Positions 22,810 through 52,491 of a stretch of 64,000 nucleotides of DNA are shown here, one piece after another. The stretch is taken from assembly GCF_044647545.1 (NCBI RefSeq), contig NZ_CP172818.1. The stretch is one strand, 5' to 3'. A model generated the notes under the pieces. The model saw only the letters and a list, made by a program, of their open reading frames with translations, did not search any database and was not told where the DNA came from. Made by a program: the position numbers and the translations under genes. Positions within the stretch are counted from its first letter, which is position 1. Each line of letters starts with the position of its first letter. This DNA comes from Escherichia coli (GTDB lineage Bacteria > Pseudomonadota > Gammaproteobacteria > Enterobacterales > Enterobacteriaceae).

Positions 22810-23070
22810 TTACTTATAAATTACCGCAGTACCGCTTAATTTATTGTTGTTGGTGGCAGAAGTGATGCTGTATCCACTGGCACCGGCCGCCGCGGCTTTC
22901 TCAGCCAGTTTCGCTTCCAGGGCATCGAGGGTGGATGCGCCATCGGCAGAAACCACGCCGATTTTATTCATGTTCTGTGCCTGGGATGCCGTTACCGGTT
23001 CCGCCGCGAACACGCCAAATGACAGAGTTGAAAGAGCCATAGCAGCAACAACAGTATTGATAGTTTTCAT
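22810..23070 (-). CDS. ybiJ: DUF1471 (YhcN-family) small periplasmic protein
   Basis: 86 aa with signal peptide, ends GTAVIYK; paralog of mcbA. Confidence 0.9.
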   Translation of the reverse strand: MKTINTVVAAMALSTLSFGVFAAEPVTASQAQNMNKIGVVSADGASTLDALEAKLAEKAAAAGASGYSITSATNNNKLSGTAVIYK

Positions 23071-23334
23071 AATTAATCTCTCGCAGGTGATTTTTGTATA
23101 AGTGACGTTGTTTCGTCGATGTGATGAGTATCACGTTTTTTTACGAGAGATAAAATCGAAGAGAATTGACCGCCTTGTTCAAATAAATTGATTGATATCT
23201 AACATACTGATAAACCATTTATTTGTTGTACTTATGGACTTGTTTTATACCGCGTGGCAGTCACGGTAGCGTTAAAGGCACGGAATGCCACGCAAAATAC
23301 AAATTATACTCGCTATACATCCCGCCAGTTGTAG

Positions 23335-23601
23335 TTAACGTAACTGGCTGTCTTTCGAACCTCTGCGATTATATCCTGTATAAGCTGGTTTTTGTAAATC
23401 TTTCTCCTGCTGACAATGAATGCATAAGCGCACGCCAGGAATGGCTTCCCGACGGGCCTGCGGGATAGGGGCACCGCACTCTTCACATTCATACAGGCTT
23501 TCGCCATGCGGAATTTCACCCCGAGCGCGGGCAATCGCATCTTCAATTGTACTGTTGATCTGTTCGTTGACGGCGTCATCATTAGCCCAACCGGATGCCA
23601 T
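23335..23601 (-). CDS. ybiI: DksA/TraR-type C4 zinc-finger protein
   Basis: 88 aa with CxxC...CxxC (CEECGAPI...CIHCQ). Confidence 0.9.
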   Translation of the reverse strand: MASGWANDDAVNEQINSTIEDAIARARGEIPHGESLYECEECGAPIPQARREAIPGVRLCIHCQQEKDLQKPAYTGYNRRGSKDSQLR

Positions 23602-23674
23602 ATCGTCCTCCCCATATCAATGCTTGTACAGCTAAGTGTAGCTAATATAGGGACGAACTCGGGCAGTTCAAGCG

Positions 23675-24352
23675 TCAGATCTCCGACCATTCCCGCAGCA
23701 GATTATGATAAAGATTGAGCAGCGACAGGATCTCTTCACTTTCGCCATGGCGGCTTTTCAGCGACTGAATATTGGTGTCCAGTTCGAACAGCATGGCGCG
23801 CTTTTTATCATCGCGGATCATCGACTGGATCCACATAAATGATGCCACCCGTACGCCACGGGTTACGGGTGTCACGCAGTGCAGGCTGCTGGAAGGGTAC
23901 AACACCAGATCGCCTGCCGGGAGTTTTACCCGATGTTGCCCGAAGGTGTCATTAACGACCAGTTCGCCGCCGTCGTAGCTTTCTGGATCGCTTAAAAACA
24001 GCGTGGCAGAAAGGTCAGTGCGCATCCAGCCGTTTTGTGGATGGCTGCGTACTGCGCCATCCACATGGAAACCATAGGTTTCATTGTTCTGATAGCGATT
24101 AAACAGCGGCGTGGAAAGGGTACGCGGCAAGGCCGCGGCAAAGAACAAAGCATGTTGATTAACCGCGTTCAGCACCTCATTTTGCAGGGCGGCGTATAAC
24201 GTGCTGCGGGTGTCTACCTGTTGATTGTTCTTAACTTGCGCACCTTGTGCGCCGGTGGTGACGCGTCCATCCACCCATTCGGCTTGTTCCAGTTGTTCGC
24301 GAAACCGGGCGACGTCCTTTGGCGATAGCACGCCGGGAATGTGGTACATCAT
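23675..24352 (-). CDS. ybiX: PKHD-type Fe(II)/2-oxoglutarate-dependent hydroxylase
   Basis: 225 aa from internal Met (MMYHIPGVL...); directly downstream of fiu. Confidence 0.85.
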
Positions 24353-24393
24353 ACAAGTTCTCCAAAAAATGGGGCCTGCGCCCCACATCTGAA

Positions 24394-26676
24394 TCAGAAA
24401 TGCATATTGGCCGTGAGCAAGAAGGTTCTTGGCTCGCCCGGGTGATAACGGTAGCCGCTCTTGTTGATTGAGGCGACGTAATCGGTATCAAACAGGTTGT
24501 AGACGTTTAGCTGGAAGTCGAGATTGCGATTAACCCGATACCCCAGTTTAGCGTCGGCGACCCAATAACCTTCGGTAAACGCTGGCGTTCCCACCGCGCC
24601 GTCAGAACCTTTATGCATACTGCCGATATACCGTGCGCCCGCACCAACGGAAATATCATCGGTTGCCTGATATTGGCTCCATAAGGTAAAGGCGTGCTCC
24701 GGCGTATAGGGCAGCGATGAGGAACCATCTTGGGCAACATCTTTGCCGTTTTTGATGGTTGCTTTTTGCTGGGTATAGCCGCCAATCACCTGCCACGCGG
24801 GAGTGATATTCCCGGCCACGGATATCTCATAGCCTTCGACGCGTTTCTTACCGTATTGCGAGTAAGTTCCGTCATCATTTTGCTCAACTTCATTTTCGAT
24901 ATCAGTACGGAACAGCGCGGCGGTGAGCAACAGGCGTTTATCCAGAACCTGCCATTTGGTGCCAATCTCGCTGGTGTTGGCTTTTTGCGGTTTAAAATCG
25001 GTGCGGTTGGCACTGTTACCGCTGCCAGACTGCGCAAGGGCGAAGTTGTTGCCGCCCGGCGGCTGCTGGGAAACGGCATAGTTAATATAGACATTGCCGT
25101 TTTCCGTCAGGTGATACAGCGCCCCGGCTTTCCAGTTCACCAGATTGCCCGACTTGGCGGTATCGACGGTGGTGACCGGAGAACCTTTTGCCACGCCAGC
25201 AGGGCAGGTGATGGCACCGCGTCCGCTGCCGCCGCAGGCGGTGGCACTGTCATATTCAGTATGATAATTATCCAGACGGATCCCGCCGTTCAGCTCAAAA
25301 TCACGGGTGATTTGCAGCGTATCGAAGGCGTAAATTGCGAAGGTATCCGTCTGACCATTGGCGTTTGCGCCGTTGCGCGTCAGGCCGCCGGGATGAATGC
25401 TGCTGTCAGGATGATAAATATTTACCGCAGGTAACGTCACCGGATTAACGCCGTAGTTAGTCTGCGTTTCACGGGTAAATTCCACGCCGGTACTGACATC
25501 ATGACCGATAGAACCGGTATAGAACGTCGAGGTCAGGTTGGTCTGGTTGGTGAGAATTTTATTACTCACATCTTTAGTATTCGCCGTGCGTGACCAGGTC
25601 CAGCTATTCACATCGCTGGTGGGCTGGGTAATATTCGACGCCCCGCCCATAATCGCCGTCATCAGGTAATCCTGCTTCACGCGCGACCAACGGGTAGTAT
25701 TGCGAATGGTGGTGTTATCGTTGATGTCGTGCTCAAAACGCATGGTAGCGGTGTCGGTGGTCGAATCGTCGTAATCGGAATCCGTGCCGTAAAAGTTATG
25801 CGTATCAACTTTTCCGGAATGATTCAGGGCCGCCGTTCCCGCAGATGGGGCAGAATAACCCGGTAAACCGATGGTCGGAATGCCGCCGTCTGGCGTGTTG
25901 TGCTGGGTGACATGCAGATAATTAAGATACAAACGATTCGCTGTACCAAGGCCAAAAGCGACAGAAGGGGCGACGCCGTAACGCTCATTTTTGACTTTGT
26001 CGCGTCCGGCATCGTGCGTTTTTTCGCCCATCACGTTCAGGCGCACCGCAGTGGTATCACCAATGACCTGATTGACGTCCAGCGTGCCGCGGCGGAACCA
26101 GGCGCTGCCAATACTCGCGGAGGCGTCAATGCCCGAATCATTGCGCGGCTGCTTGCTGATCATATTGATCGAGCCCGTCGGCGCGCTGCGCCCGTAGTCG
26201 GTGCCGGACGGCCCTTTAATTACTTCGACCTGCTCGGTATTGAAGGTGTCGCGCGAGACGCTGCCGATATCGCGAATGCCATCAATATAAATACTGTTAG
26301 AAGTATCGGCACCGCGCATATAAATGGCGTCGCCAGTGGTGGAGTTACCGTTCTCACCCGCAAAAAACGCACCCACGCCGGGGACGTTTTTGAGCGCGTC
26401 GGTAAGGTTGGTTGCGCCCTGATCTTTAATCACTTGTTCAGAAATCACCGTCATCGTGCGGGTAGTATCCGCTACCGGACGCGAGAATTTCGGATCGGCA
26501 GATTGTTGTGGCGCATAAAGCGAAGGCGTTGATGCTTCGACAACCAGCGTGTCATCCGCGTTAGTTTGCCCTTCGGCGGCGAGAGCCTGAGCCACAGGCG
26601 TGATGCCAATACAAAGACCGGCAAAGAACGTGAGCGAATGAAATTGTCTGGCAGGGAAATTGCGATTGTTTTCCAT
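24394..26676 (-). CDS. fiu: TonB-dependent catecholate siderophore receptor
   Basis: 760 aa ORF with signal peptide and C-terminal aromatic residue (ends ...ANMHF). Confidence 0.95.
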
Positions 26677-30732: not shown

Positions 30733-30737
30733 CTGAG

Positions 30738-39820: not shown

Positions 39821-40741
39821 TTAATTCAGACGAACCGGCATCCCAGAACGATTTTTGATCGCTTCATCAAGAACAACCTGGTCAACATCTGGCTGACCGG
39901 TCACTGTCTGCACGCTCTTCGTCAGGGTAATTGGCACAATTTCCTGACCTTCAAACTGGGCTTCGGTGGTAGACAGCGGATTATGGACTTCAATATAACG
40001 GCTGCCGTCTGGCTCGGTGGTCGCTTTTACCGGCTCATCAATAAACTGCACGCGAGTACCGACAGGCACTTTCTCGAACAGGAATTTAATGTCTTCGTTA
40101 CGCAGACGCACACAGCCATGACTTACACGCAGGCCGATACCGAAGTTGGCGTTGGTGCCATGGATAGCGTACAGGCGACCGATGTAGAGTGCATACAGAC
40201 CCATCGGGTTATCCGGACCTGCCGGAACGACAGCCGGAAGCGGTTCGCCCGCAGCGCGGTACTCTGCGTGCATTTTGGCGGTCGGCGTCCAGGTCGGGCC
40301 TGCTTTCTTACGCTCAACTTTGGTGGTCCAGTTGATAGGCGTGTCTTTGCCTAACTGACCAATGCCGATGGGCAGCACGATAACGGTGTTGCTGCCTTTC
40401 GGATAGTAATAGAGACGCATCTCTGCGCTGTTAATGACAATGCCTTCATGAACGGTATCCGGCAGGATCAGCTGCTGCGGAATGTTCAGTACAGTACCGC
40501 CTTTCGGCAGGAAGGTATCCACACCCGGGTTAGCTTCCATCATGTTGGAAAGACCCATCTGGTACTCGGCGGCAAAATACTCCAGCGGCTGAGTGTTACC
40601 TTCAGGAATGGTGATTACCTGATTCTGACCAACCAGGCGACTCCCGTCGGTTGGCAGAGGATAAGTTACCGCAGAGGCGGTACTGCAAAAGCCGACAACA
40701 GCGAAGGCCGCTGCGAATAATGTTTTCAATTTCATATTCAT
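39821..40741 (-). CDS. ldtB: L,D-transpeptidase (links Lpp to peptidoglycan)
   Basis: 306 aa with signal peptide; catalytic Cys in ...RVSHGCVRL. Confidence 0.9.
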
Positions 40742-40959
40742 GTTAAGCGAGATTTTGTGCCTGGCAGGCCATTGGGTTGAGAATATTAGAGTATTGGAAG
40801 CGCATTATAAGTTCATTCCAGCTCACAGTGAAATCAGATGTGTACGAAATCACATTTTTTGCCTTTGGGAAGAGTGTAGACCTTAAGCGGGGGACGGGAT
40901 CTTCTTTCAGACTTATGGCATAATACGCGGTTTGTCATATCTCTTTTCAGGATACGCCT

Positions 40960-42552
40960 GTGTTAGTTTCCAGTAACGTCACCATGCAGTTCGGCAGTAA
41001 GCCGTTGTTTGAAAACATTTCCGTCAAGTTTGGCGGCGGCAACCGTTACGGCCTGATTGGCGCGAACGGTAGTGGTAAATCCACCTTTATGAAGATCCTC
41101 GGCGGCGACTTAGAGCCGACGCTGGGTAACGTTTCCCTCGATCCCAACGAGCGCATTGGTAAGCTGCGTCAGGATCAGTTTGCCTTTGAAGAGTTCACTG
41201 TGCTGGATACGGTGATCATGGGGCATAAAGAATTATGGGAAGTGAAGCAGGAGCGCGACCGCATCTATGCTTTGCCGGAAATGAGTGAGGAAGACGGCTA
41301 TAAAGTGGCCGATCTGGAAGTGAAATACGGCGAAATGGACGGTTACTCTGCGGAAGCTCGCGCCGGTGAACTGTTGCTTGGCGTGGGAATTCCAGTGGAA
41401 CAGCACTACGGCCCGATGAGTGAAGTTGCTCCTGGCTGGAAGCTGCGTGTGCTGCTGGCGCAGGCGCTGTTTGCTGATCCGGACATTCTCCTGCTCGACG
41501 AACCGACCAACAACCTCGACATCGACACCATTCGTTGGCTGGAACAGGTGCTGAACGAGCGTGACAGCACCATGATCATCATCTCGCACGACCGTCACTT
41601 CCTTAACATGGTTTGTACCCACATGGCGGATCTGGATTACGGCGAGCTGCGCGTTTATCCGGGCAACTACGATGAGTACATGACGGCGGCGACCCAGGCG
41701 CGTGAACGTCTGCTGGCTGATAACGCCAAGAAGAAGGCGCAGATTGCTGAGCTGCAATCTTTCGTTAGCCGCTTTAGCGCCAACGCCTCGAAATCTCGCC
41801 AGGCAACTTCGCGCGCGCGCCAGATTGATAAAATCAAACTGGAAGAGGTGAAAGCCTCCAGCCGTCAGAACCCGTTCATCCGTTTTGAACAGGATAAGAA
41901 ACTGTTCCGTAACGCGCTGGAAGTGGAAGGTCTGACCAAAGGGTTTGATAACGGTCCGCTGTTTAAAAATCTCAACCTGCTGCTGGAAGTCGGTGAAAAA
42001 CTGGCGGTACTGGGTACCAACGGCGTCGGTAAATCAACGCTGTTGAAAACGCTGGTGGGCGATCTGCAACCGGACAGCGGCACCGTAAAATGGTCTGAAA
42101 ACGCGCGCATTGGTTACTATGCTCAGGACCACGAATATGAGTTTGAAAATGATCTGACCGTGTTCGAATGGATGAGCCAGTGGAAGCAGGAAGGCGATGA
42201 CGAGCAGGCGGTACGCAGCATTCTCGGTCGTTTGCTGTTCAGCCAGGACGACATTAAAAAGCCAGCTAAAGTGCTTTCCGGTGGGGAAAAAGGGCGGATG
42301 CTGTTTGGTAAGTTAATGATGCAGAAGCCGAACATTCTGATCATGGACGAACCGACCAACCACCTGGATATGGAATCTATTGAGTCGCTGAACATGGCGC
42401 TGGAACTGTATCAGGGCACGCTGATCTTTGTTTCACACGACCGTGAGTTCGTAAGCTCCCTGGCGACCCGTATTCTGGAAATCACCCCGGAACGCGTGAT
42501 CGACTTTAGCGGTAATTACGAAGATTATCTGCGTAGTAAAGGGATCGAGTAA
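40960..42552 (+). CDS. ybiT: ABC-F family ATPase with two nucleotide-binding domains, no membrane domain
   Basis: 530 aa; Walker [10 protein letters not shown] and GTNGVGKST. Confidence 0.9.
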
Positions 42553-42637
42553 CTGTTGATCTCGTTTCCCAGATCCAGCAGCTGCTGAGGTTGTCATAAA
42601 ACAGGCCGAAGCTAAACGTCATTGCGGCGGGTGATGG

Positions 42638-43205
42638 CTAATGGAATGTGTTGTACAGCGGGTCAGTACTCACGGCGTTGTAGCCCATCGCGTCGAGGTT
42701 ACGCATCTCGTAACGTTTACCGTTGCGTTGCAGGTCGCCGGCTTTATCTCCGAGGCCATAAAAGCGTTCATCTTTACGACGGCTCTGATAGTGCGCCACA
42801 CCGTCACCGTGGGCATTCAGCAGATAAGCGCTGGTCGGTCGGTCATTCACTAACGGCAGCCATTTCGTCTTCGTTGTTACTATAGTGCCACTCCAGCCAC
42901 AGCGGCTGGTGAACGGTGGACCAGTGACTCGGTGGCGATAACCACGGCGTTGTTGTGCTGGTTCAGGTTCATGCGGGCAGGCCAGCCGCTGGACATTTTG
43001 CCGGCCGCGCCCTTCCCGATGGCACATCCTGCTGGAGCAATGCTCCAGGTGCGATCCAGCGCCAGCTCGCCTTTGCGTTTTAACAGCACGCGGAACAGAA
43101 TTCCAGCACGTACAGACGCAATACGCCCGCCATCGACCAGCAGTTCAACGTGGTGGGCAGACTGTTTGAGGTCCAGTTTTTCAGCGTTTCGACGTTGCAC
43201 ATCAC
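42638..43205 (-). pseudogene. Glycoside hydrolase family 31-like N-terminal fragment, frameshifted and 3'-truncated
   Basis: Two consecutive frames: ...HHVELLVDGGRIASVRAGILFRV...NQHNNAVVIATESL then ...RFYGLGDKAGDLQRNGKRYEMRNLDAMGYNAVSTDPLY-stop; same motif spacing as YicI ([23 protein letters not shown]); about 190 aa retained of an expected 700+. Confidence 0.55.
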
Positions 43206-43207
43206 TC

Positions 43208-44445
43208 TCAGGCGCGTTTTGCGCGACGTTCAGCAATAAAGGTGACCAGGAAGAAAGCGCCAATCAGGTCAAAGAAGCCCATGGCGATAAACAGGGCTTA
43301 AAGCCGATTTTGTCAGCAGTAACCCCGATAATCAGGGAGAAACAGGAAACTTGCTATCGACGCGGCAGAACCGCGCATGCCGTTACAGTGGCCATCTGAC
43401 CTTTGTCGAGGATTCCACTACTAATGCGCTAAGCATGCAGGAGATGATCTGGTCAACCGAAGCCGCCTATGGAAGATAAGGACGATGGCGATATGGGTTA
43501 TCCAGAAAGGCCATCACCGCCAGCGAAACCATCAGGAATGCGCCACTGACCGATCTATGCGCAATGGAGTTCACACTGACTCAGCCCAAACAGGCGGGTG
43601 TAAAGTTTGGTCAGATAGCCGCTGGCAATACTGCCAAGATCAGCGGCGAAGGAACGGCAACCAGGCGAAAGAGTGCGATCTGCTTCAGGTCGATGCCATA
43701 GGCATCTGGACAGGTATAGCGGAACCCAGAAACTCATCACCGCCCACGCCGGTTCTGCCATAAAGGCTGGGATAGTGATACCGTAAAAGCGTTTATTTTT
43801 GCCCACGGTTTTCAGTGCGGTCAGAAAGGGTAACTTGACCGGGGAGCTTCGTTATCCTGGCGGAGCAACCAGCTTGGCTTCGCTGAAGGTCAGGATGCTT
43901 ATCCGGGTTGCGATAAAACCCACCACAGCACCACCCACAGCATCGCCAGGATGCCAGTGGCATAAATGCGCCCTGCCAGCGAATGAAGCGTGGGCAAAAT
44001 AGATAATCGGTGGGGCCAGCATGGCACCGATGGAGTCTACGTCTGCCCAGCGGCGATCGGGCGTTGCGATTTTGGAAACCATTCACCTCATAGTTTTGGG
44101 GTTTGCCGGGGTGGCCGCGGCTTCCGCACCGCCCGATAAAGAAGCGCAACAGCGCCAGATGTACCCAGTTTCCCGCCCCCGCATGCATCAGACAGGCCAG
44201 CGCCCACAGCCCCTGTGCAGATCAGAAGCCCAGTTTGAGGCCAATGACGTCAATGAGCCACCGCATAACGGTTGAAATAGGGTATAGGCGAGTTGGAAAG
44301 CACCTACAATCCAGGAATATTGTTTTGTGCAATCCCCAGGCTGCTTTTCAACTCGGCGTACACCCAGCGAATTACGTGTGATGTAGTTGACAGTAACACC
44401 GAGCAAAAAAAGGACCAGCATCCACCAACGCAGATTTTTGAACAC
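43208..44445 (-). pseudogene. ExuT-like (anion:cation symporter family MFS) sugar-acid transporter, multiply frameshifted
   Basis: Fragments in at least four frames align in order along ExuT: N-terminus MFKNLRWWMLVLFLLGVTVNYITRN...KQYSWIVGAFQLAYTLFQP, then WRCCGWCCGGFYRNPDKHPDL, then KNKRFYGITIPAFMAEPAWAVMSFWVPLYL, then C-terminus IGVTADKIGFKP...FIAMGFFDLIGAFFLVTFIAERRAKRA. Confidence 0.7.
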
Positions 44446-44779
44446 CGGCGTGGTTTACTGGCAGTCATATCAATCGATACCCACTGATATGCACTCCACA
44501 GAATGGTATAGGGGGGCGGCAACGTCAGACGGAGTTGTCACACCACTTTTAACCTTTTGATAAATAAAGTCTTTATTGTCTGTTTTTCCATTGTTCTTGT
44601 ACTGGAAGTTGTTGTCACATTTTTACAGTAAGAGACACTAAAAGCGAAAAAGAAAGCGGGTTTTGTGCACGTTTTTCCATGCGGCCCATACATTACTGAA
44701 ATGGATTTAATGCCAGACAGAATGGGCTTTTTTTGCTCATGAAAATTCTGTCATTTCCGAATTAGAGGACATCAGAAAT

Positions 44780-45830
44780 CGGCAAAGAGCTTAAATTGCC
44801 GATATCGCCGCACGTACCGGATTATCGCCGATACGGTTTCGCGGGTGCTGCTGGCAAAGCGAATACCAGTGCACGCGCTCGCGAACAGGCGCTGGCCTGC
44901 GCGTGAGTTGGGCGCGATGGATGGCATGGCAGCAGGTCATGTTGCTGAATACAACTCATCATTTTGCGCCGCAACGCGCGTTTGACCAACGATCTGATAT
45001 CTTTTATTACCTGGTGTGATCCAGCATCAGCAAAGCGTTATCGCCCGCATGAAGTGCGGCTGCGTTACTGCGTGTTAAGGTAGTTCTACAGCTGATCCCT
45101 GGCGTGATCTGGCGGCATGAATGAAGCAGATACGCAGGCGGCGATCCTGCTGGGGATCGACGATCCGCACATCCATGATCTGGCCGCCGATCGCTAAGCC
45201 TTGCGCTGATCGACTGCTGGTGATGAACGAATGCGCCTCCCGACGATTGCGCCGGACCATCGGTTAATCGGCGTGTCTGCCGCCCGCTATCTGTTTGAAA
45301 TGGGTCACCGGGAGGTGATGAACGTTATGTGCCTGCGCTCGGCCACACTATGGAGCAGCGGTTTGCAGGGATCAAAGAATCATGGCGTCAGCATAATCTG
45401 GCCTTTCACCATGACCGTCATTTGCTGAATATCAGCAGTTTTCTCAGCGCTAAAGAAGCGGAAGAAGGTCGGAGCGCGGCCTGATGCCGCCAATGGCAAT
45501 ACGTTGCCGACGGCGTTTCTGGTCGGCGGGGATTTTTATGGCGGCGGGAACGGTAAATGCGCTACATCGTCGTGGTCTGCGCGTACCACAGGATGTCTCG
45601 GTGATGAGTATCGATGGTCTTCAATCTTGCGGCAATCGAGGATGTTCCCGACGGCTGTGACGTGCCACGCGATCAGCTAAGGGTTAAGTGGTGCAAATGT
45701 TGCAACAGCGGCTGATTCGCCGGATGTCTGCGGTGGGCTCGCTGCTGCTGCACGGACGATTAGCGGTGCGGACGCGCGGCGGTTGCCCAGGAAAAGGGAA
45801 CACCGCCGTGGAACGGGAAGGGCTGTACGA
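44780..45830 (+). pseudogene. LacI-family transcriptional regulator, multiply frameshifted
   Basis: N-terminal helix-turn-helix spread over three frames (IADIAARTGLSP / TVSRVL / GKANTSARAREQALACA); sugar-binding-domain fragments PDHRLIGVSAARYLFEMGHREV and ALHRRGLRVPQDVSVMSIDG; boundaries approximate. Confidence 0.65.
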
Positions 45831-45833
45831 CAA

Positions 45834-47102
45834 TCATTCCATTCCCAGCGCTCGCTTACCGTGAATGTTGAGGTCGGCAAGCGTAAAGCGTCCTTCCCAG
45901 TTTGTTTCATAGTCCTCGCGCGGGAAGTCGCCCGGCGATGCGCCTTTTTCCAGTGCGGCCTTCACCTTGTGCGCGTAGGCAAGATTTTTCTCGCACATCG
46001 GTGCCGCAGGAATGTACATCACGTTGCCCCAACCCTGTTGATTTTCAACGGGGGCAACGGAATGGATGACGTCGCAGTGCCACCAGACGGAGTCTCCGGC
46101 TTCGAGTTGTGGAATGCTGGTTAATGCCTCAATCAACAGTGGATGCCATTGCTCTGATACCGGCAACACTCTTCCGGGCGCTACGCCGCACAGTTCATCC
46201 TCCGGCACATCATCAAGCAGCGGACGTAACAGCACGTACGCCATGGCTTCAGGAATGGGCACGACGTGCAGCAGTCCCTGACCAGGCAGCATATCAGAGA
46301 GCGCTGTCCAGCCCTGGAATGTCCGAAACACGGAACATTTGGTGGTGTTGTCCACCGTGTACTCTTCAACTTCTGTACGATGTGCCGCATGCCAGGGATC
46401 ATATTGCGCCAGATTGCCATTAAAGACGTTGGCGAAAACGCGCTGATACGCTGGAAGCAGCCAGCGTTCCAGTGCCCCGGAGTCGGTATGCGCTCCGAGA
46501 CCTTTGGAGGCCGTTCCGGGCGGACGGCGGCGGATACGGTCAGGGTAGATGACGCTCACATCCGGGTTAAACCATTGCTTTCCATCACTTTCAAATGTCC
46601 ACAGACGATTGAGAAACGACTGCGCATTCGCCATTTCTTCACTCTGGCGGGCCTGCATTTGCGCCTGCGACCAGTAGATGGGGTAAATCTCGGGACGTGA
46701 AGCGCTGAGCGTCCCGAAGAAATTATCGCCGGGGCCTTTGTAGACCTCATCAAAGCGGTTGCGGTCCAGATAGTCCAGCATCGACTGATCCCAGCCTAGC
46801 GCTTGTTCGCGGGGGAAATGGCCTTTTATCACCGCACAACCGCGACGTTTAATCTGTTCGCGTTGCTCTGCAGTAACATGACCTGCTTTGATATCGGCAT
46901 AAGACAGCACCGGCCAGACTGCATCGCCCTGTGCTTTGAGTGCGTTGATTTCAGCCACTCGCGTGGCAATGTCATCGCTTAGCTGATTAAAGATCTGCTG
47001 GACGTCGCCAAGCTGCGCCCGCAGCGCGTGCTTCATCTGACGGATAGCTGCTTTGTGATCGGCAGGCAATGTGTTGCTGGTAAAAGTAGAAGCCATAACC
47101 AC
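45834..47102 (-). CDS. ybiU: DUF1479 family protein
   Basis: 422 aa intact ORF. Confidence 0.85.
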   Translation of the reverse strand: MVMASTFTSNTLPADHKAAIRQMKHALRAQLGDVQQIFNQLSDDIATRVAEINALKAQGDAVWPVLSYADIKAGHVTAEQREQIKRRGCAVIKGHFPREQALGWDQSMLDYLDRNRFDEVYKGPGDNFFGTLSASRPEIYPIYWSQAQMQARQSEEMANAQSFLNRLWTFESDGKQWFNPDVSVIYPDRIRRRPPGTASKGLGAHTDSGALERWLLPAYQRVFANVFNGNLAQYDPWHAAHRTEVEEYTVDNTTKCSVFRTFQGWTALSDMLPGQGLLHVVPIPEAMAYVLLRPLLDDVPEDELCGVAPGRVLPVSEQWHPLLIEALTSIPQLEAGDSVWWHCDVIHSVAPVENQQGWGNVMYIPAAPMCEKNLAYAHKVKAALEKGASPGDFPREDYETNWEGRFTLADLNIHGKRALGME

Positions 47103-47247
47103 CTCGCATTAACTTTCATTCGAAACTATGCTGATTTGCATGTGACAATATAAGTTATAAATAAGTTAATGCAAGTTTAATGATTTGATGTGATGTACAG
47201 GATGTAAAAAGAAGGGAAAACCGGAGCGCATGGCTCCGGTAGAGAGG

Positions 47248-48063
47248 TCAGCTGTTAAAAGGGGATCTGTTATCCAGCACAGCCTGAATCACGTTCAGCG
47301 CGCCTTCATGATTATTATCATCGGTAGCATAACGGGCGATTTGTTTAATGTTTTCCGCAGCATTGCCCATCGCAAAGGAATAACGCGCCATTTTCAGCAT
47401 CTCCGCATCGTTACCGCTGTCGCCAATCGCTACCACATTTTGCGGTGACAGATCCCAGCGTTTCAGTAACCGCGAAATACCGTTTGCTTTATGTAGACCG
47501 GGAATAATCAGGTCGATAAAGCCAAAACCACTGGTGACGGGTTTCATAATGCCATCCAGCGCTATGTGCAGTTTGTCGATCACTAACGGGATTTGTTCAT
47601 CCGGCAGGTTGAGCGAAAACTTGAACAGTACGTCGTCAATCTCCTGATAATCTTTTACAGGTTTCAGGCGATGGTAGTGTTTTGCCATCAGTGCGACGAA
47701 TGCTTCGGGGGCATTTTCGCTGACATATGCACTTTGCAGACCGCAAGCGACAAAATTGAGTTGCTTATCTTTTAGCAACTCGCCAATAACAATCCGCGAT
47801 TCATGTCGGGTCAGTTCGCCGTGGAACAACTGCTTGCCATGTTCGTAAACCAGTGCGCCGTTTTCCGCGACAAAAGAGATCTCATCCTTTAGCTCAGGAA
47901 AGAACGAAATAAGCTGGTAATACTGATTACCGCTGGCGACAACGAACTCAATGCCGCGCTTTTTCAGTTCCTGATATTGCGCCATAAAACGTGGTTGGTT
48001 GTACGTTTTGGCGTCGTTAAGAAAAGTACCGTCCATGTCTGTGACGATAACTTTTACGCTCAT
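47248..48063 (-). CDS. ybiV: HAD-superfamily (Cof-type) sugar phosphatase
   Basis: 271 aa; N-terminal DMDGT motif. Confidence 0.9.
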
Positions 48064-48208
48064 AGGTGTGCTCCTGGCTCGAAAATGAAACCGTAACAGT
48101 GTAATAACAATGTGACGCAGAGCACAAATTATATTTCGAATGAAAGCGAGGCTGAAATTGATGATGTGAATGATTTAGCCCGGCGACGACGACGCCGGGC
48201 TGAGGAGA

Positions 48209-50641
48209 TTACAGCATATGTTCAGTACGGGCGATGATATCGTCCTGAGCGTCTGGAGAGAGCGCGGTGAAGAAGGCGGAATAGCCCGCGACACGCACTA
48301 CCAGATCGCGGTACTGATCCGGATGTTTTTTCGCTTCCAGCAGCGTTTCGCGGGAAACGATGTTGTACTGAATATGCCAGCCTTTATGCACTTCAAAGAA
48401 GGTGCGTAGCAGGATCATCAGTTTCTGCTTGTCAGATTCGTTCTCCAGCGTTGCCGGATTCAGTTTCTGGTTGAGCAACACGCCGCCGAGAATCGCGGCC
48501 GTAGGCAGTTTACCCACCGAGCCAATGACCGCAGTAGGGCCAAGATGATCAGTACCGGAGGCCGGACTAGCTCCTTCTGCCAGCGGGGTATGCGCTTTAC
48601 GTCCGTCCGGCGTTGCCATCGTCTGCGCGCCAAAGGGTACGTTAGCGGAGATAGATGACGTACCCGCGTAATAATTGCCGCCAACCGGACCACGACCATA
48701 GCGCGGGTTATGGTACTGTTTTAGTTCGTCGATATAGGTCTGATAAGCGCGAGCCAGCAGCGTATCGACAGTATCATCGTCGTTGCCGTACTTAGGCGCA
48801 CCGTTAATCAGCCGCTGACGCAGCTGCTCGTGAGTCAGGCCGTCGAAGTCATCCGCCAGTGCGGCAGCCAGCTGTTGCTGACCAATCGCGCCCTGTTCAA
48901 ATACCAGTTTCTTCACTGCCGCCAGGCTGTTGCCGAGGTTAGCAATGCCGACCTGCAGGCCAGAAACCCAGTCATATTTCGCGCCGCCTTGCTTGATACT
49001 TTTCGCTCGCTCAATACAGTCATCCACCAGCGCCGAGCAGAGAATATCGTGTACGTTCTCTTCCAGCATGGTGTCGACGACATATTCGATTTCGATTGAT
49101 TTACGCGTGTAGTAACGGATTTGCGTATCCCATGCGTCCATTACTTCATCGAAGTTGTTGAAGTTACCCGCTGACAACGCTTTTTCTTGTGGCAGGAACA
49201 CTTTGCCGCTGGTGGCATCACGACCGCCTTCCAGCGCCGCCAGCATCACGCGGGCGAAGTTGATAAAGCTCATGCCGGTACAGCGATAGCCCCATTTGCC
49301 ACCGACGGCGGTTTCGATACAACCAATCGCTGCGTAGTCGTAAGCGTCCTGCGGTTCAATACCGAGTTTAATAAATTCCGGGATGACGATTTCATCGTTG
49401 TTGAACGCCGGCATCCCGAAACCACAGCGGATCACCTGAACACAGGCATCGAGGAAATCGTTACTCATACCCGCATGGTAACGCACGCTGAGGTTAGGCT
49501 GAGTCGAACGCAGGCGACCGCAGGATTCGAGGATCGCATAAGAGAGTGGATTTACCGCGTCCATCGGTTGACCATCAACCAGATTTTGCCCGCCAATGGT
49601 GACGTTCTGATACAGCGGACTTCCCGCAGAGGCTTTTGAGTGTGAGCCGGAGCGGATTTTGTTCACTTCCAGCAATTTCAACCAGCAGCTATGCAGCATC
49701 TCGATGGCGTGTTCGCGATCCAGTGTCTGGTTCAGTTCAACGTCACGGCGATAGTATGGATAGAGATACTGGTCCATACGACCAAAAGATACTGAGTGAC
49801 CGTTAGATTCGATCTGCAATATCAACTGGATGAAGTAACACAGTTGCAGCGCCTGCCAGAAAGTCTGCGGCGGTTGGTGGGCGATAAGATCGCAGTTTTC
49901 TGCCATCGCCAGCAGTTCATCGCGACGGCTTTCGCGGGTTTCGGTCGTGGCCATTTCACGCGCCAGGGCAGCGAAACGTTCAATGTGTTCACTGACTGCC
50001 ACCAGCACGATATCAATCGCTTTCAGGAATTGCTCGCCGTGCAGATCTTCCAGTACCGTCAGATTGATGCGCGAGCGACGTTCCGCCACTTTCTCACGCA
50101 GACCATCAAGCCCTTTTTCCAGCAGTAGCGGGAAATTCACCGCCAGGTGCGCATCGCCGGAGGTCATATTGCCCTCCGCTTTAATGATGCCGGTCGCCAG
50201 CAGACCTTTTTGCTCATCGGTAAACATGCCGTAGCAGCGATCCTGTACCGTCTGACCGCGCCACCACGGGCACACTTCATGCAGAACACGTTTGTTCTCC
50301 TCGCTCACCGCAAAACCAGCACCCGGACGATCTGCCAGATCATCAATCTCTTTTTCGATCCACGAGACGGTATATTCCGGGAAGATCGGCGCGGCGCGAA
50401 CCTCGCTTGCCTGGTTGCCGATGATCAACTCATCGTGCTTGATCCAGATGGTGCGATTCGCCAGGTGATGCGCCAGTGCCAGCGCGCGACGTACCGGGAT
50501 CGGCTTATCGAGATGTTGTTGATACATCTCGGTATAGTGCTGCGCGCGCTCGGTACAGACTGGTGGTTTCACAATATGCACCAGCGCATTTTTGTGCGCT
50601 TTAATGCGGTCGCTGAGCGTGTCCAGTTTCAGTGTGGTCAT
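48209..50641 (-). CDS. ybiW: Glycyl radical enzyme (pyruvate formate-lyase-like), substrate not established
   Basis: 810 aa; C-terminal glycyl-radical signature ...VVRVAGYSAFF. Confidence 0.9.
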   Translation of the reverse strand: MTTLKLDTLSDRIKAHKNALVHIVKPPVCTERAQHYTEMYQQHLDKPIPVRRALALAHHLANRTIWIKHDELIIGNQASEVRAAPIFPEYTVSWIEKEIDDLADRPGAGFAVSEENKRVLHEVCPWWRGQTVQDRCYGMFTDEQKGLLATGIIKAEGNMTSGDAHLAVNFPLLLEKGLDGLREKVAERRSRINLTVLEDLHGEQFLKAIDIVLVAVSEHIERFAALAREMATTETRESRRDELLAMAENCDLIAHQPPQTFWQALQLCYFIQLILQIESNGHSVSFGRMDQYLYPYYRRDVELNQTLDREHAIEMLHSCWLKLLEVNKIRSGSHSKASAGSPLYQNVTIGGQNLVDGQPMDAVNPLSYAILESCGRLRSTQPNLSVRYHAGMSNDFLDACVQVIRCGFGMPAFNNDEIVIPEFIKLGIEPQDAYDYAAIGCIETAVGGKWGYRCTGMSFINFARVMLAALEGGRDATSGKVFLPQEKALSAGNFNNFDEVMDAWDTQIRYYTRKSIEIEYVVDTMLEENVHDILCSALVDDCIERAKSIKQGGAKYDWVSGLQVGIANLGNSLAAVKKLVFEQGAIGQQQLAAALADDFDGLTHEQLRQRLINGAPKYGNDDDTVDTLLARAYQTYIDELKQYHNPRYGRGPVGGNYYAGTSSISANVPFGAQTMATPDGRKAHTPLAEGASPASGTDHLGPTAVIGSVGKLPTAAILGGVLLNQKLNPATLENESDKQKLMILLRTFFEVHKGWHIQYNIVSRETLLEAKKHPDQYRDLVVRVAGYSAFFTALSPDAQDDIIARTEHML

Positions 50642-50646
50642 GGTTG

Positions 50647-51573
50647 TTATCCTCGTAAGGTCGCGGTTAACCCTTTCTGGCAGGCGTACTGCTGGGCAAA
50701 GTCGAGCAGTTCTGGCGCATCAAGCGGTTTTTCCGGGGCGTCATAGGGCAGATTAAGTAAGTGATATTTGTTGATGCCCAGCGTGTGGTAGGGCAGAAAA
50801 TGAATTTCGCCAACGTGCAGCTCGTCGGCGGCAAAATCGGTAATGGCTTTTACAGAGGTTTCGTCGGCATTAAAGCCCTGAATCAGCGGTACGCGGATAA
50901 TGATTTTTTTGCCCGCTGAGGCGAGTTTTTTCAGGTTATCCAGCACTCTGGCGGCGTTACCGTCGGTCCACTGTTTAAACGGCGCGTCGGCAACGTGTTT
51001 TAAATCGGCAAGAAACAGATCGATATAGGGCAGAGAAGGGGCGATATATTTCCACGGCACATGCAGACAGGTTTCTACCGCAGTATGAATGCCAGCCTCG
51101 TGGCTGGCTTGCAGTAGCGCCATCGCCATTTCCGGCTGCATAAACGGTTCACCGCCAGAAAGCGTTAAGCCGCCGCCGCTGCGATCGTAAAACGGTTTAT
51201 CGCGCAGAACGGTCGCCATGATCTCCTCAACGCTTTTCACTTCACCACACACGGTTAACGCCTGTGTCGGGCAGCAGTCGGTTAGCGCCGTCAGATGCTC
51301 CGGGGTTAACTTTTCCCGATGAATAAGCAAACCATTCAACGCGCGCTCAATCACGTCCGGCGCGGCCTTAGCGCACAGCTCACAGCCTTCCAGGCACAGA
51401 CGTGGGTCATACAGCAGATCCTGCGTGCGGGCGCGGCTTTCCGGGTTCTGACACCAGCGGCAGCCCAGCGAACAGCCTTTAAGAAATACGACCGTGCGGA
51501 TACCGGGGCCATCATGGGTCGAGTAGCGCTGAATATTGAAAATCATAGTTGCCTCTCTGTTTCGTTCAAACAT
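50647..51573 (-). CDS. ybiY: Glycyl-radical-enzyme activating enzyme (radical SAM)
   Basis: ORF 50647..51573; radical-SAM CxxxCxxC motif (CSLGCRWC) plus additional Cys clusters; true start may be a downstream Met. Confidence 0.85.
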
Positions 51574-51676
51574 TAAAATACTTTCGAATGAAAGTTAGAT
51601 TGATGTGCGTCAACTGTTCAGAGAGTTTTCCCGTGATAGTCTACATTCAGACAAAAAGTACATTTTGAGGATGGTT

Positions 51677-52339
51677 ATGGAACTGTATCTGGATACTTCA
51701 GACGTTGTTGCGGTGAAGGCGCTGTCACGTATTTTTCCGCTGGCGGGTGTGACCACTAACCCAAGCATTATCGCCGCGGGTAAAAAACCGCTGGAGGTTG
51801 TGCTTCCGCAACTTCACGAGGCGATGGGCGGTCAGGGGCGTCTGTTTGCCCAGGTAATGGCTACCACTGCCGAAGGGATGGTGAATGACGCGCTTAAGCT
51901 GCGTTCTATTATTGCGGATATCGTGGTGAAAGTTCCGGTGACCGCCGAGGGGCTGGCAGCGATTAAGATGTTAAAAGCGGAAGGGATTCCGACGCTGGGA
52001 ACCGCGGTATATGGCGCAGCACAAGGGCTACTGTCGGCGCTGGCAGGTGCGGAATATGTTGCGCCTTACGTTAATCGTATTGATGCTCAGGGCGGTAGCG
52101 GTATTCAGACTGTGACCGACTTACACCAGTTATTGAAAATGCATGCGCCGCAGGCGAAAGTGTTAGCCGCGAGTTTCAAAACCCCGCGTCAGGCGCTGGA
52201 CTGCTTACTGGCAGGATGTGAATCAATTACTCTGCCACTGGATGTGGCACAACAGATGATTAGCTATCCGGCGGTTGATGCCGCTGTGGCGAAGTTTGAG
52301 CAGGACTGGCAGGGAGCGTTTGGCAGAACGTCGATTTAA
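51677..52339 (+). CDS. fsaA: Fructose-6-phosphate aldolase 1
   Basis: 220 aa from internal Met ([11 protein letters not shown]...). Confidence 0.9.
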
Positions 52340-52491
52340 CCGGACGTTCTGCATCCTCATCAATTGCTGATAACGTTGTGGAGTGCACCAAGCTTCCGCG
52401 CCTGAAATTCGCCCGAACTAGGCAGATAAGGTTACGCCGATTGGGTCTGAGAAAATTATCTGCCGCGACTTATCAGGCCTGGGGCTGGCAG

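Follow-up and report, generated by a model that had tools for sequence, protein, structure and literature searches.

The window analyzed here is a 64,000-nt stretch of an Escherichia coli chromosome (contig NZ_CP172818.1). Between ybiT and ybiU it carries the remnant of an MFS transporter gene, with the remnants of a GH31 glycoside hydrolase gene on one side and of a LacI-family regulator gene on the other. In E. coli strain FDAARGOS_497 the same island is intact and reads, in order, ybiT, GH31 (787 aa, minus strand), MFS transporter WP_000077533.1 (433 aa, minus strand), LacI-family regulator (367 aa, plus strand) and ybiU. Aligned with locus L001 of that strain, the island region of the window contains the following features.

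42548..42549, no strand: junction at which 1,887 nt are missing (L001 2109-3995 of FDAARGOS_497)
42549..43193, minus strand: remnant of the GH31 glycoside hydrolase gene (orthologue WP_000854254.1, 787 aa), aligned to L001 3996-4658 of FDAARGOS_497
43208..44488, minus strand: scrambled ExuT-family (ACS) MFS transporter gene, aligned to L001 4673-5974 of FDAARGOS_497 and supported by a frameshift map and tblastn
44489..44778, no strand: divergent MFS/LacI intergenic (promoter) region, noisy, with 25 bases changed in 292 nt of reference
44779..45864, plus strand: scrambled LacI-family regulator gene (orthologue WP_001571153.1, 367 aa), with 57 substitutions and 48 indel bases

All reading frames between 42900 and 44800 hold short ORFs only, several of which, on the minus strand, encode MFS-like peptides. 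A first-pass annotation had placed an ExuT-like gene, split into at least four frames, at 43208-44445, and a gene of this type is indeed present there on the minus strand. When the segment 43100-44600 is searched by tblastn, the intact orthologue WP_000077533.1 matches with E = 7e-99 and K-12 ExuT itself with E = 2e-28, far beyond chance. The ExuT motifs that had drawn attention to the locus are also real: RFYGITIPAFMAEPAW lies in the ORF at 43555-43806, and LWW.FYRNPDKHPDL is found as well.

The gene is indeed broken, but four frames greatly understate the damage. Relative to the intact gene of FDAARGOS_497, the remnant has undergone 31 indel events, of which 19 are deletions and 12 insertions; together they amount to 45 nt, and nearly all of them shift the reading frame. 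It also has 46 substitutions and one nonsense codon, and the original ATG is destroyed. The substitutions fall at codon positions 1, 2 and 3 in the proportions 20/9/17. The 43208 end had been placed correctly, but the other end, the 5' end of the gene, was set 43 nt short, the orthologous gene extending to 44488. Small deletions have occurred as proposed, for a net loss of 21 nt, yet they have not made the gene substantially shorter: at 1,281 nt, against 1,302 nt in the intact gene, it is nearly full length. After frame correction, the translation agrees with the intact protein at 382 of 434 residues. The broken N-terminal ORF still matches the NCBIfam family TIGR00893 weakly (E = 0.0036).

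We assigned the family from the intact orthologue. It has the same length as ExuT, the hexuronate:H+ symporter (TC 2.A.1.14), and shares with it the motifs FYxxPxxHP and FxGIxIPxFxAEPAW. Among the E. coli paralogues tested, ExuT is also the closest, with the K-12 protein 43.5% identical over 414 aa (E = 1e-120). The record of the intact product carries Pfam MFS_1 (PF07690). Of the NCBIfam profiles, that of the anion:cation symporter subfamily, TIGR00893, gives the best match (E = 7e-79, over positions 1-397 of 399); the score of 265.6 bits falls short of the curated threshold of 395 bits. Among solved structures the nearest is DgoT, the D-galactonate:H+ symporter (PDB 6E9N/6E9O), which matches over the full length (E = 6e-38) and belongs to the same ACS family, the relationship being distant. 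The intact protein has the MFS fold, and its closest characterized relatives are in the ACS family (TC 2.A.1.14).

ExuT itself is a different gene. The true exuT is core, present in 5420 of 5426 E. coli genomes, and in K-12 it adjoins uxaCA and exuR. The ExuT-family paralogue is accessory, present in 577 of 5426 genomes, and lies beside a GH31 glycosidase and a LacI regulator. Because its identity to ExuT is 43.5%, because the genuine exuT is elsewhere, and because its neighbors are GH31 and LacI genes rather than uxaC-uxaA and exuR, the transporter is not an ExuT orthologue. Judged from its sequence, it is an accessory paralogue of ExuT, and the "ExuT-like" of the first-pass annotation holds as a family label only. 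The gene underlying the remnant is an already annotated, uncharacterized ExuT-family paralogue that is intact in approximately 10% of E. coli genomes.

The three genes are best read as an accessory island for sugar utilization in ST648-type E. coli. The neighboring genes share both the distribution of the transporter and its damage. A megablast search with 42553-45833 against 5,426 complete E. coli genomes found the island in 577, always at 90-95% identity and annotated as three intact genes; within the transporter region, DNA identity to the intact gene of these genomes is 92%. The GH31 remnant keeps the N-terminal ~220 codons, which are equally noisy, and lacks the C-terminal 566 codons; its 129-aa ORF has a weak MalA/GH31 match. 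The intact WP_000854254.1 is a GH31 protein nearest to the glucosidase-II and alpha-glucosidase types. We considered a sulfoquinovose island, given the combination of GH31 with an anion-type MFS transporter, and dropped the idea, as YihQ is far down the GH31 match list. A literature search on the ybiT-ybiU island found no relevant paper.

The two edges of the island are unusual. The missing 1,887 nt comprise the C-terminal 566 GH31 codons, the spacer between GH31 and ybiT, and the final 7 nt of ybiT; the first base lost is also the first in the island for which K-12 offers no counterpart. As a result, YbiT ends in KGIE-stop in the window, as it does in K-12 and in island-less strains, whereas in ST648 it ends in KGIDG-stop. 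On the other side, the last change in the LacI gene (45840) reaches into the end of the convergent ybiU and affects its last 3 codons, so that YbiU ends in ALGME-stop, compared to ALGIDS-stop in ST648 and ALGMDV-stop in K-12. Both flanking genes stay open, ybiT through an immediate stop and ybiU through an in-frame 3-nt deletion. The K-12-like bases at these junctions amount to one informative base per side; we considered them as proof of a K-12 backbone and kept them as suggestive only.

A second irregular copy of the island came up during these comparisons. NZ_CP168949.1 (strain IH5), deposited as a "complete" genome, contains only a 1-kb piece of the island amid unrelated partial genes, all of them flagged "partial in the middle of a contig." The IH5 locus looks like concatenated contigs and not like a genuine locus.

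The damage in the window has sharp limits. All differences from the intact island fall within 42549-45840 and add up to 144 substitutions, with 96 bases deleted and 37 inserted. This corresponds to 8.3% of bases (4.3% mismatches and 2.9% deletions), and the GH31 gene, the intergenic region and the LacI gene are damaged at the same density as the transporter. Outside this block, the window and FDAARGOS_497 show 0 differences over 40441-42548 (2,108 nt) and again over 45841-52395, and only a handful over the remaining ~55 kb. At the SNP sites that separate ST648 from K-12, the window carries the ST648 state in 1459 of 1459 cases. On these comparisons, the window outside the damaged block is the chromosome of an ST648-clone E. 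coli. Its ST648 relatives all have an intact island, and approximately 298 changes are private to the window. Since the lesions are private and the flanks are identical to ST648, every lesion arose on the terminal branch.

This bears directly on the first-pass reading of the locus as a long-standing loss of function, in which frameshifts and small deletions were gathered slowly in situ after the gene ceased to be used. Such a history would fit the many independent lesions, the damage to both neighboring operon genes and the lack of synonymous bias in the transporter (11 synonymous, 34 non-synonymous and 1 nonsense substitution). It would also have left its mark on the flanks. If the island's 4.3% substitution density is taken as neutral decay, approximately 36 substitutions are expected at the 842 four-fold sites of ybiT, ybiU, ybiV and part of ybiW; relative to strains with an intact gene, we observed 0 (P about 2e-16). 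The lesions lie on an ST648-type allele, and the decayed version of the island is absent from all 5,426 complete E. coli genomes. A comparison of the locus across strains had been proposed as a way to order the inactivating events, but there are no shared lesions to order, all of them being private to this sequence. Exact look-ups of two window ORFs and of the altered YbiU found no record, while a control look-up of the intact-island YbiU found it in 6,001 blocks, beside an intact island in all places shown. As set out below, neither the mutation spectrum nor the distribution of damage along the window suits an old pseudogene, and we consider that explanation very improbable. As far as sequence comparison can tell, the idea of long-standing decay withstands none of the comparative tests.

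A divergent block between identical flanks could also have been imported, as a decayed allele of a distant lineage that recombined into the ST648 background. The natural variation of the island allows this to be assessed. Natural intact islands form two alleles, ~1.8% apart, and of the 67 allele-diagnostic sites in the window, 56 carry the ST648 state and 3 that of the other allele, and the remaining 8 agree with neither. The 3 matches to the other allele are at chance level. Moreover, an imported segment should have brought flank SNPs with it, as the flanking sequence of island-less and group-2 strains is 1.7-3% divergent, and the window has none. No donor-like allele exists among the 5,426 genomes. 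Of the histories weighed here, import is the one to which we give the least credence.

The kinds of change in the island are equally informative. The natural mutation spectrum of E. coli is transition-rich and strand-symmetric, and G:C>C:G changes are rare. In the island, the transition:transversion count is 73:71, and G:C>C:G accounts for 29 of 144 substitutions (20%). Within the three genes there are 130 substitutions, of which 32 are synonymous, 95 non-synonymous and 3 nonsense, and they are spread roughly evenly over codon positions. The strands also behave differently. Changes of the class C<->T on the plus strand (A<->G on the minus strand) number 59, compared to 14 in the complementary class (p = 1e-7), and each transversion pair has approximately 18 changes against these 59. 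The bias is the same in the minus-strand GH31 and MFS genes and in the plus-strand LacI gene. We therefore rejected a transcription-linked asymmetry, as the plus-strand bias is alike in genes of both orientations. With a transition:transversion ratio of ~1, 20% G:C>C:G changes and a 4:1 strand asymmetry, the spectrum is not a natural one, and this, together with the private lesions and the unchanged flanks, is what overturns the idea of long-standing loss.

Finer features of the changes point in the same direction. There is a context bias of the CG<->TG type, with 39 of the 59 C<->T changes preceding a G (p = 3e-9). Single-nucleotide indels are enriched in homopolymers: 4 of 27 one-nucleotide deletions fall in runs of at least 5, and such runs make up 2.2% of positions. 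Along the island region the events are overdispersed, with an index of dispersion of 1.77. At Dam (GATC) and Dcm (CCWGG) sites in the island, changes are not enriched.

Published error profiles of nanopore reads are similar in several respects. In bacteria, the read error is ~6-8%, with deletions, the most frequent type of error, exceeding insertions and with homopolymers under-called, and on the read strand A<->G substitutions occur 3-5 times as often as transversions (PMC8486125). We found a closer parallel in public sequence collections. A homology search with a frameshifted ORF from the window did not return this allele; its matches were all to further assemblies of the gene that are themselves noisy or frameshifted. 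Two of them, contig_2287 of ENA ERZ1714329 and contig_1377 of ENA ERZ1714338, are long-read metagenome contigs of E. coli that contain the same island. Both have 8-9% error over their whole length and are 91-92% identical to the intact island. Their transition:transversion ratio is ~1.1, 14% of their changes are G<->C, deletions exceed insertions, and the same CG<->TG/CA context bias is present. Frameshift-riddled database copies of this transporter gene are usually assembly noise.

Over the range of the window, the alignment of ST648 with K-12 contains exactly five structural differences. Two are insertions found in ST648 only, the island (5,235 nt) and a REP element of 99 nt; at the other three sites it is K-12 that has extra REP sequence. 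All five are anomalous in the window. Those outside the island are as follows.

52396..52461, no strand: garbled 99-nt REP-type element between fsa and moeB, present in ST648 and not in K-12, with 25 bases deleted and 6 substitutions
943, no strand: two nucleotides (TG) lost from ST648-specific filler; K-12 carries an additional REP segment of 150 nt at this site
22799, no strand: one nucleotide (C) lost from ST648-specific filler; K-12 carries an additional REP segment of ~73 nt at this site
30736, no strand: three nucleotides (AGA) lost from ST648-specific filler; K-12 carries an additional REP segment of ~139 nt at this site

The deletions at 943 and 22799 are shared by no complete E. coli genome, and the AGA deletion at 30736 is not found in the two ST648 genomes compared. 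None of these sites has any relation to the transporter operon, which again speaks against a pseudogene that decayed in place. The damage follows absence from a K-12-like reference and not biological units, and therefore suggests a technical step that was anchored on such a reference.

Only two other differences are private to the window, a synonymous SNP in ybhM (6043) and a frameshift in dps (33828). The latter shortens a run of six T to five (A6 on the coding strand) at about codon 27 of dps, which is on the minus strand, and changes SEKKATVELL to SEKKQQ and a stop. The T6 run is kept in the dps genes of K-12, FDAARGOS_497 and strain ST648. A homopolymer under-call, from the same technical source, is the probable cause; if the frameshift were real, the strain would be without Dps.

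One further frameshift in this range belongs to a different record. In NZ_CP008697.1 (strain ST648), pdeI is annotated as frameshifted by one extra A (~23069-25418 of locus L022, corresponding to about 61603 in the window). The extra A is absent from both the window and FDAARGOS_497, and pdeI is presumably intact in the window.

A recent burst of localized hypermutation could, in principle, have struck the accessory DNA (the island, the REP element and the three REP-insertion sites) and spared the core, through error-prone repair or some unknown process. The restriction of the damage to non-core segments and the open state of the flanking ybiT and ybiU would be as expected. A true event of this kind would mean that some unknown mutagenic process singles out non-core DNA. 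To our knowledge, no bacterial process gives 8% substitutions and indels over 3.3 kb with base-sharp edges. In addition, the island's signature matches sequencing noise, and the same type of lesion occurs at unrelated short filler sequences. We find this explanation as hard to credit as old decay.

Deliberate degradation in silico deserves more weight, and we nevertheless regard it as unlikely. Here, the accessory segments of a real ST648 sequence would have been mutated by a program such as a long-read error simulator or a "gene ageing" model. The sharp boundaries, the private nature of all changes and the non-natural spectrum would follow directly, and the window version has no match in public collections. 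A realistic read simulator would, moreover, be indistinguishable from real read noise. A uniform mutation model, by contrast, is excluded by the context bias, the strand asymmetry, the homopolymer enrichment and the overdispersion. The choice of sites is also difficult to explain in this way: they are the structural differences from K-12-like E. coli, including lesions of 1-3 nt at three empty REP sites, which an annotation-based simulator would not choose.

We consider it likely, with a probability of roughly 70%, that the breakage of the transporter gene is technical, consisting of uncorrected long-read-type sequence in segments that the reference lacks, and that the strain's real gene is probably intact. 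As to the particular pipeline, we infer that the record was built or corrected by a step anchored on an island-less, K-12-like reference. One possibility is that a related genome was polished, or had structural-variant calls applied to it, with noisy nanopore-type reads. Non-reference insertions would then have been taken at roughly single-read accuracy, and the 1,887 nt may be missing because this insertion was only partly recovered. Non-reference deletions would have been left with imprecise breakpoints. Some observations count against an artifact of this kind. Deposited assemblies do not usually combine error at the level of single reads with a chromosome that is clean elsewhere, and ybiT and ybiU both stay open, an outcome that selection could produce too.

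The broken transporter is most likely of little biological interest, as it is most likely not a real evolutionary pseudogene. It does carry a caution, in that a pseudogene that appears ancient and many times broken can be an artifact of assembly or consensus. Comparing lesion density with flank divergence and with close relatives quickly exposes such artifacts. In every strain-specific segment, pseudogene counts or statements about gene decay based on this record would be in error.

The resemblance to known systems is instructive on both sides. Like nanopore noise, the island has ~8% error, more deleted than inserted bases (96 against 37), under-called homopolymers and an excess of A<->G changes on one strand, ~3-4 fold over other classes. 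Unlike nanopore noise, its mismatches exceed its deletions, and Dam and Dcm sites show no enrichment. It also differs from uncorrected long-read contigs, in which noise extends over the whole contig, whereas the noise in the window is confined to non-reference segments. With the classical pseudogenes of Shigella and host-restricted Salmonella, the remnant has frameshifts, a lost start and damaged operon neighbors in common. Those pseudogenes, however, carry one or a few lesions, which are shared within a lineage and proportionate to its divergence, whereas here 77 private lesions are packed into 1.3 kb between flanks that have not diverged.
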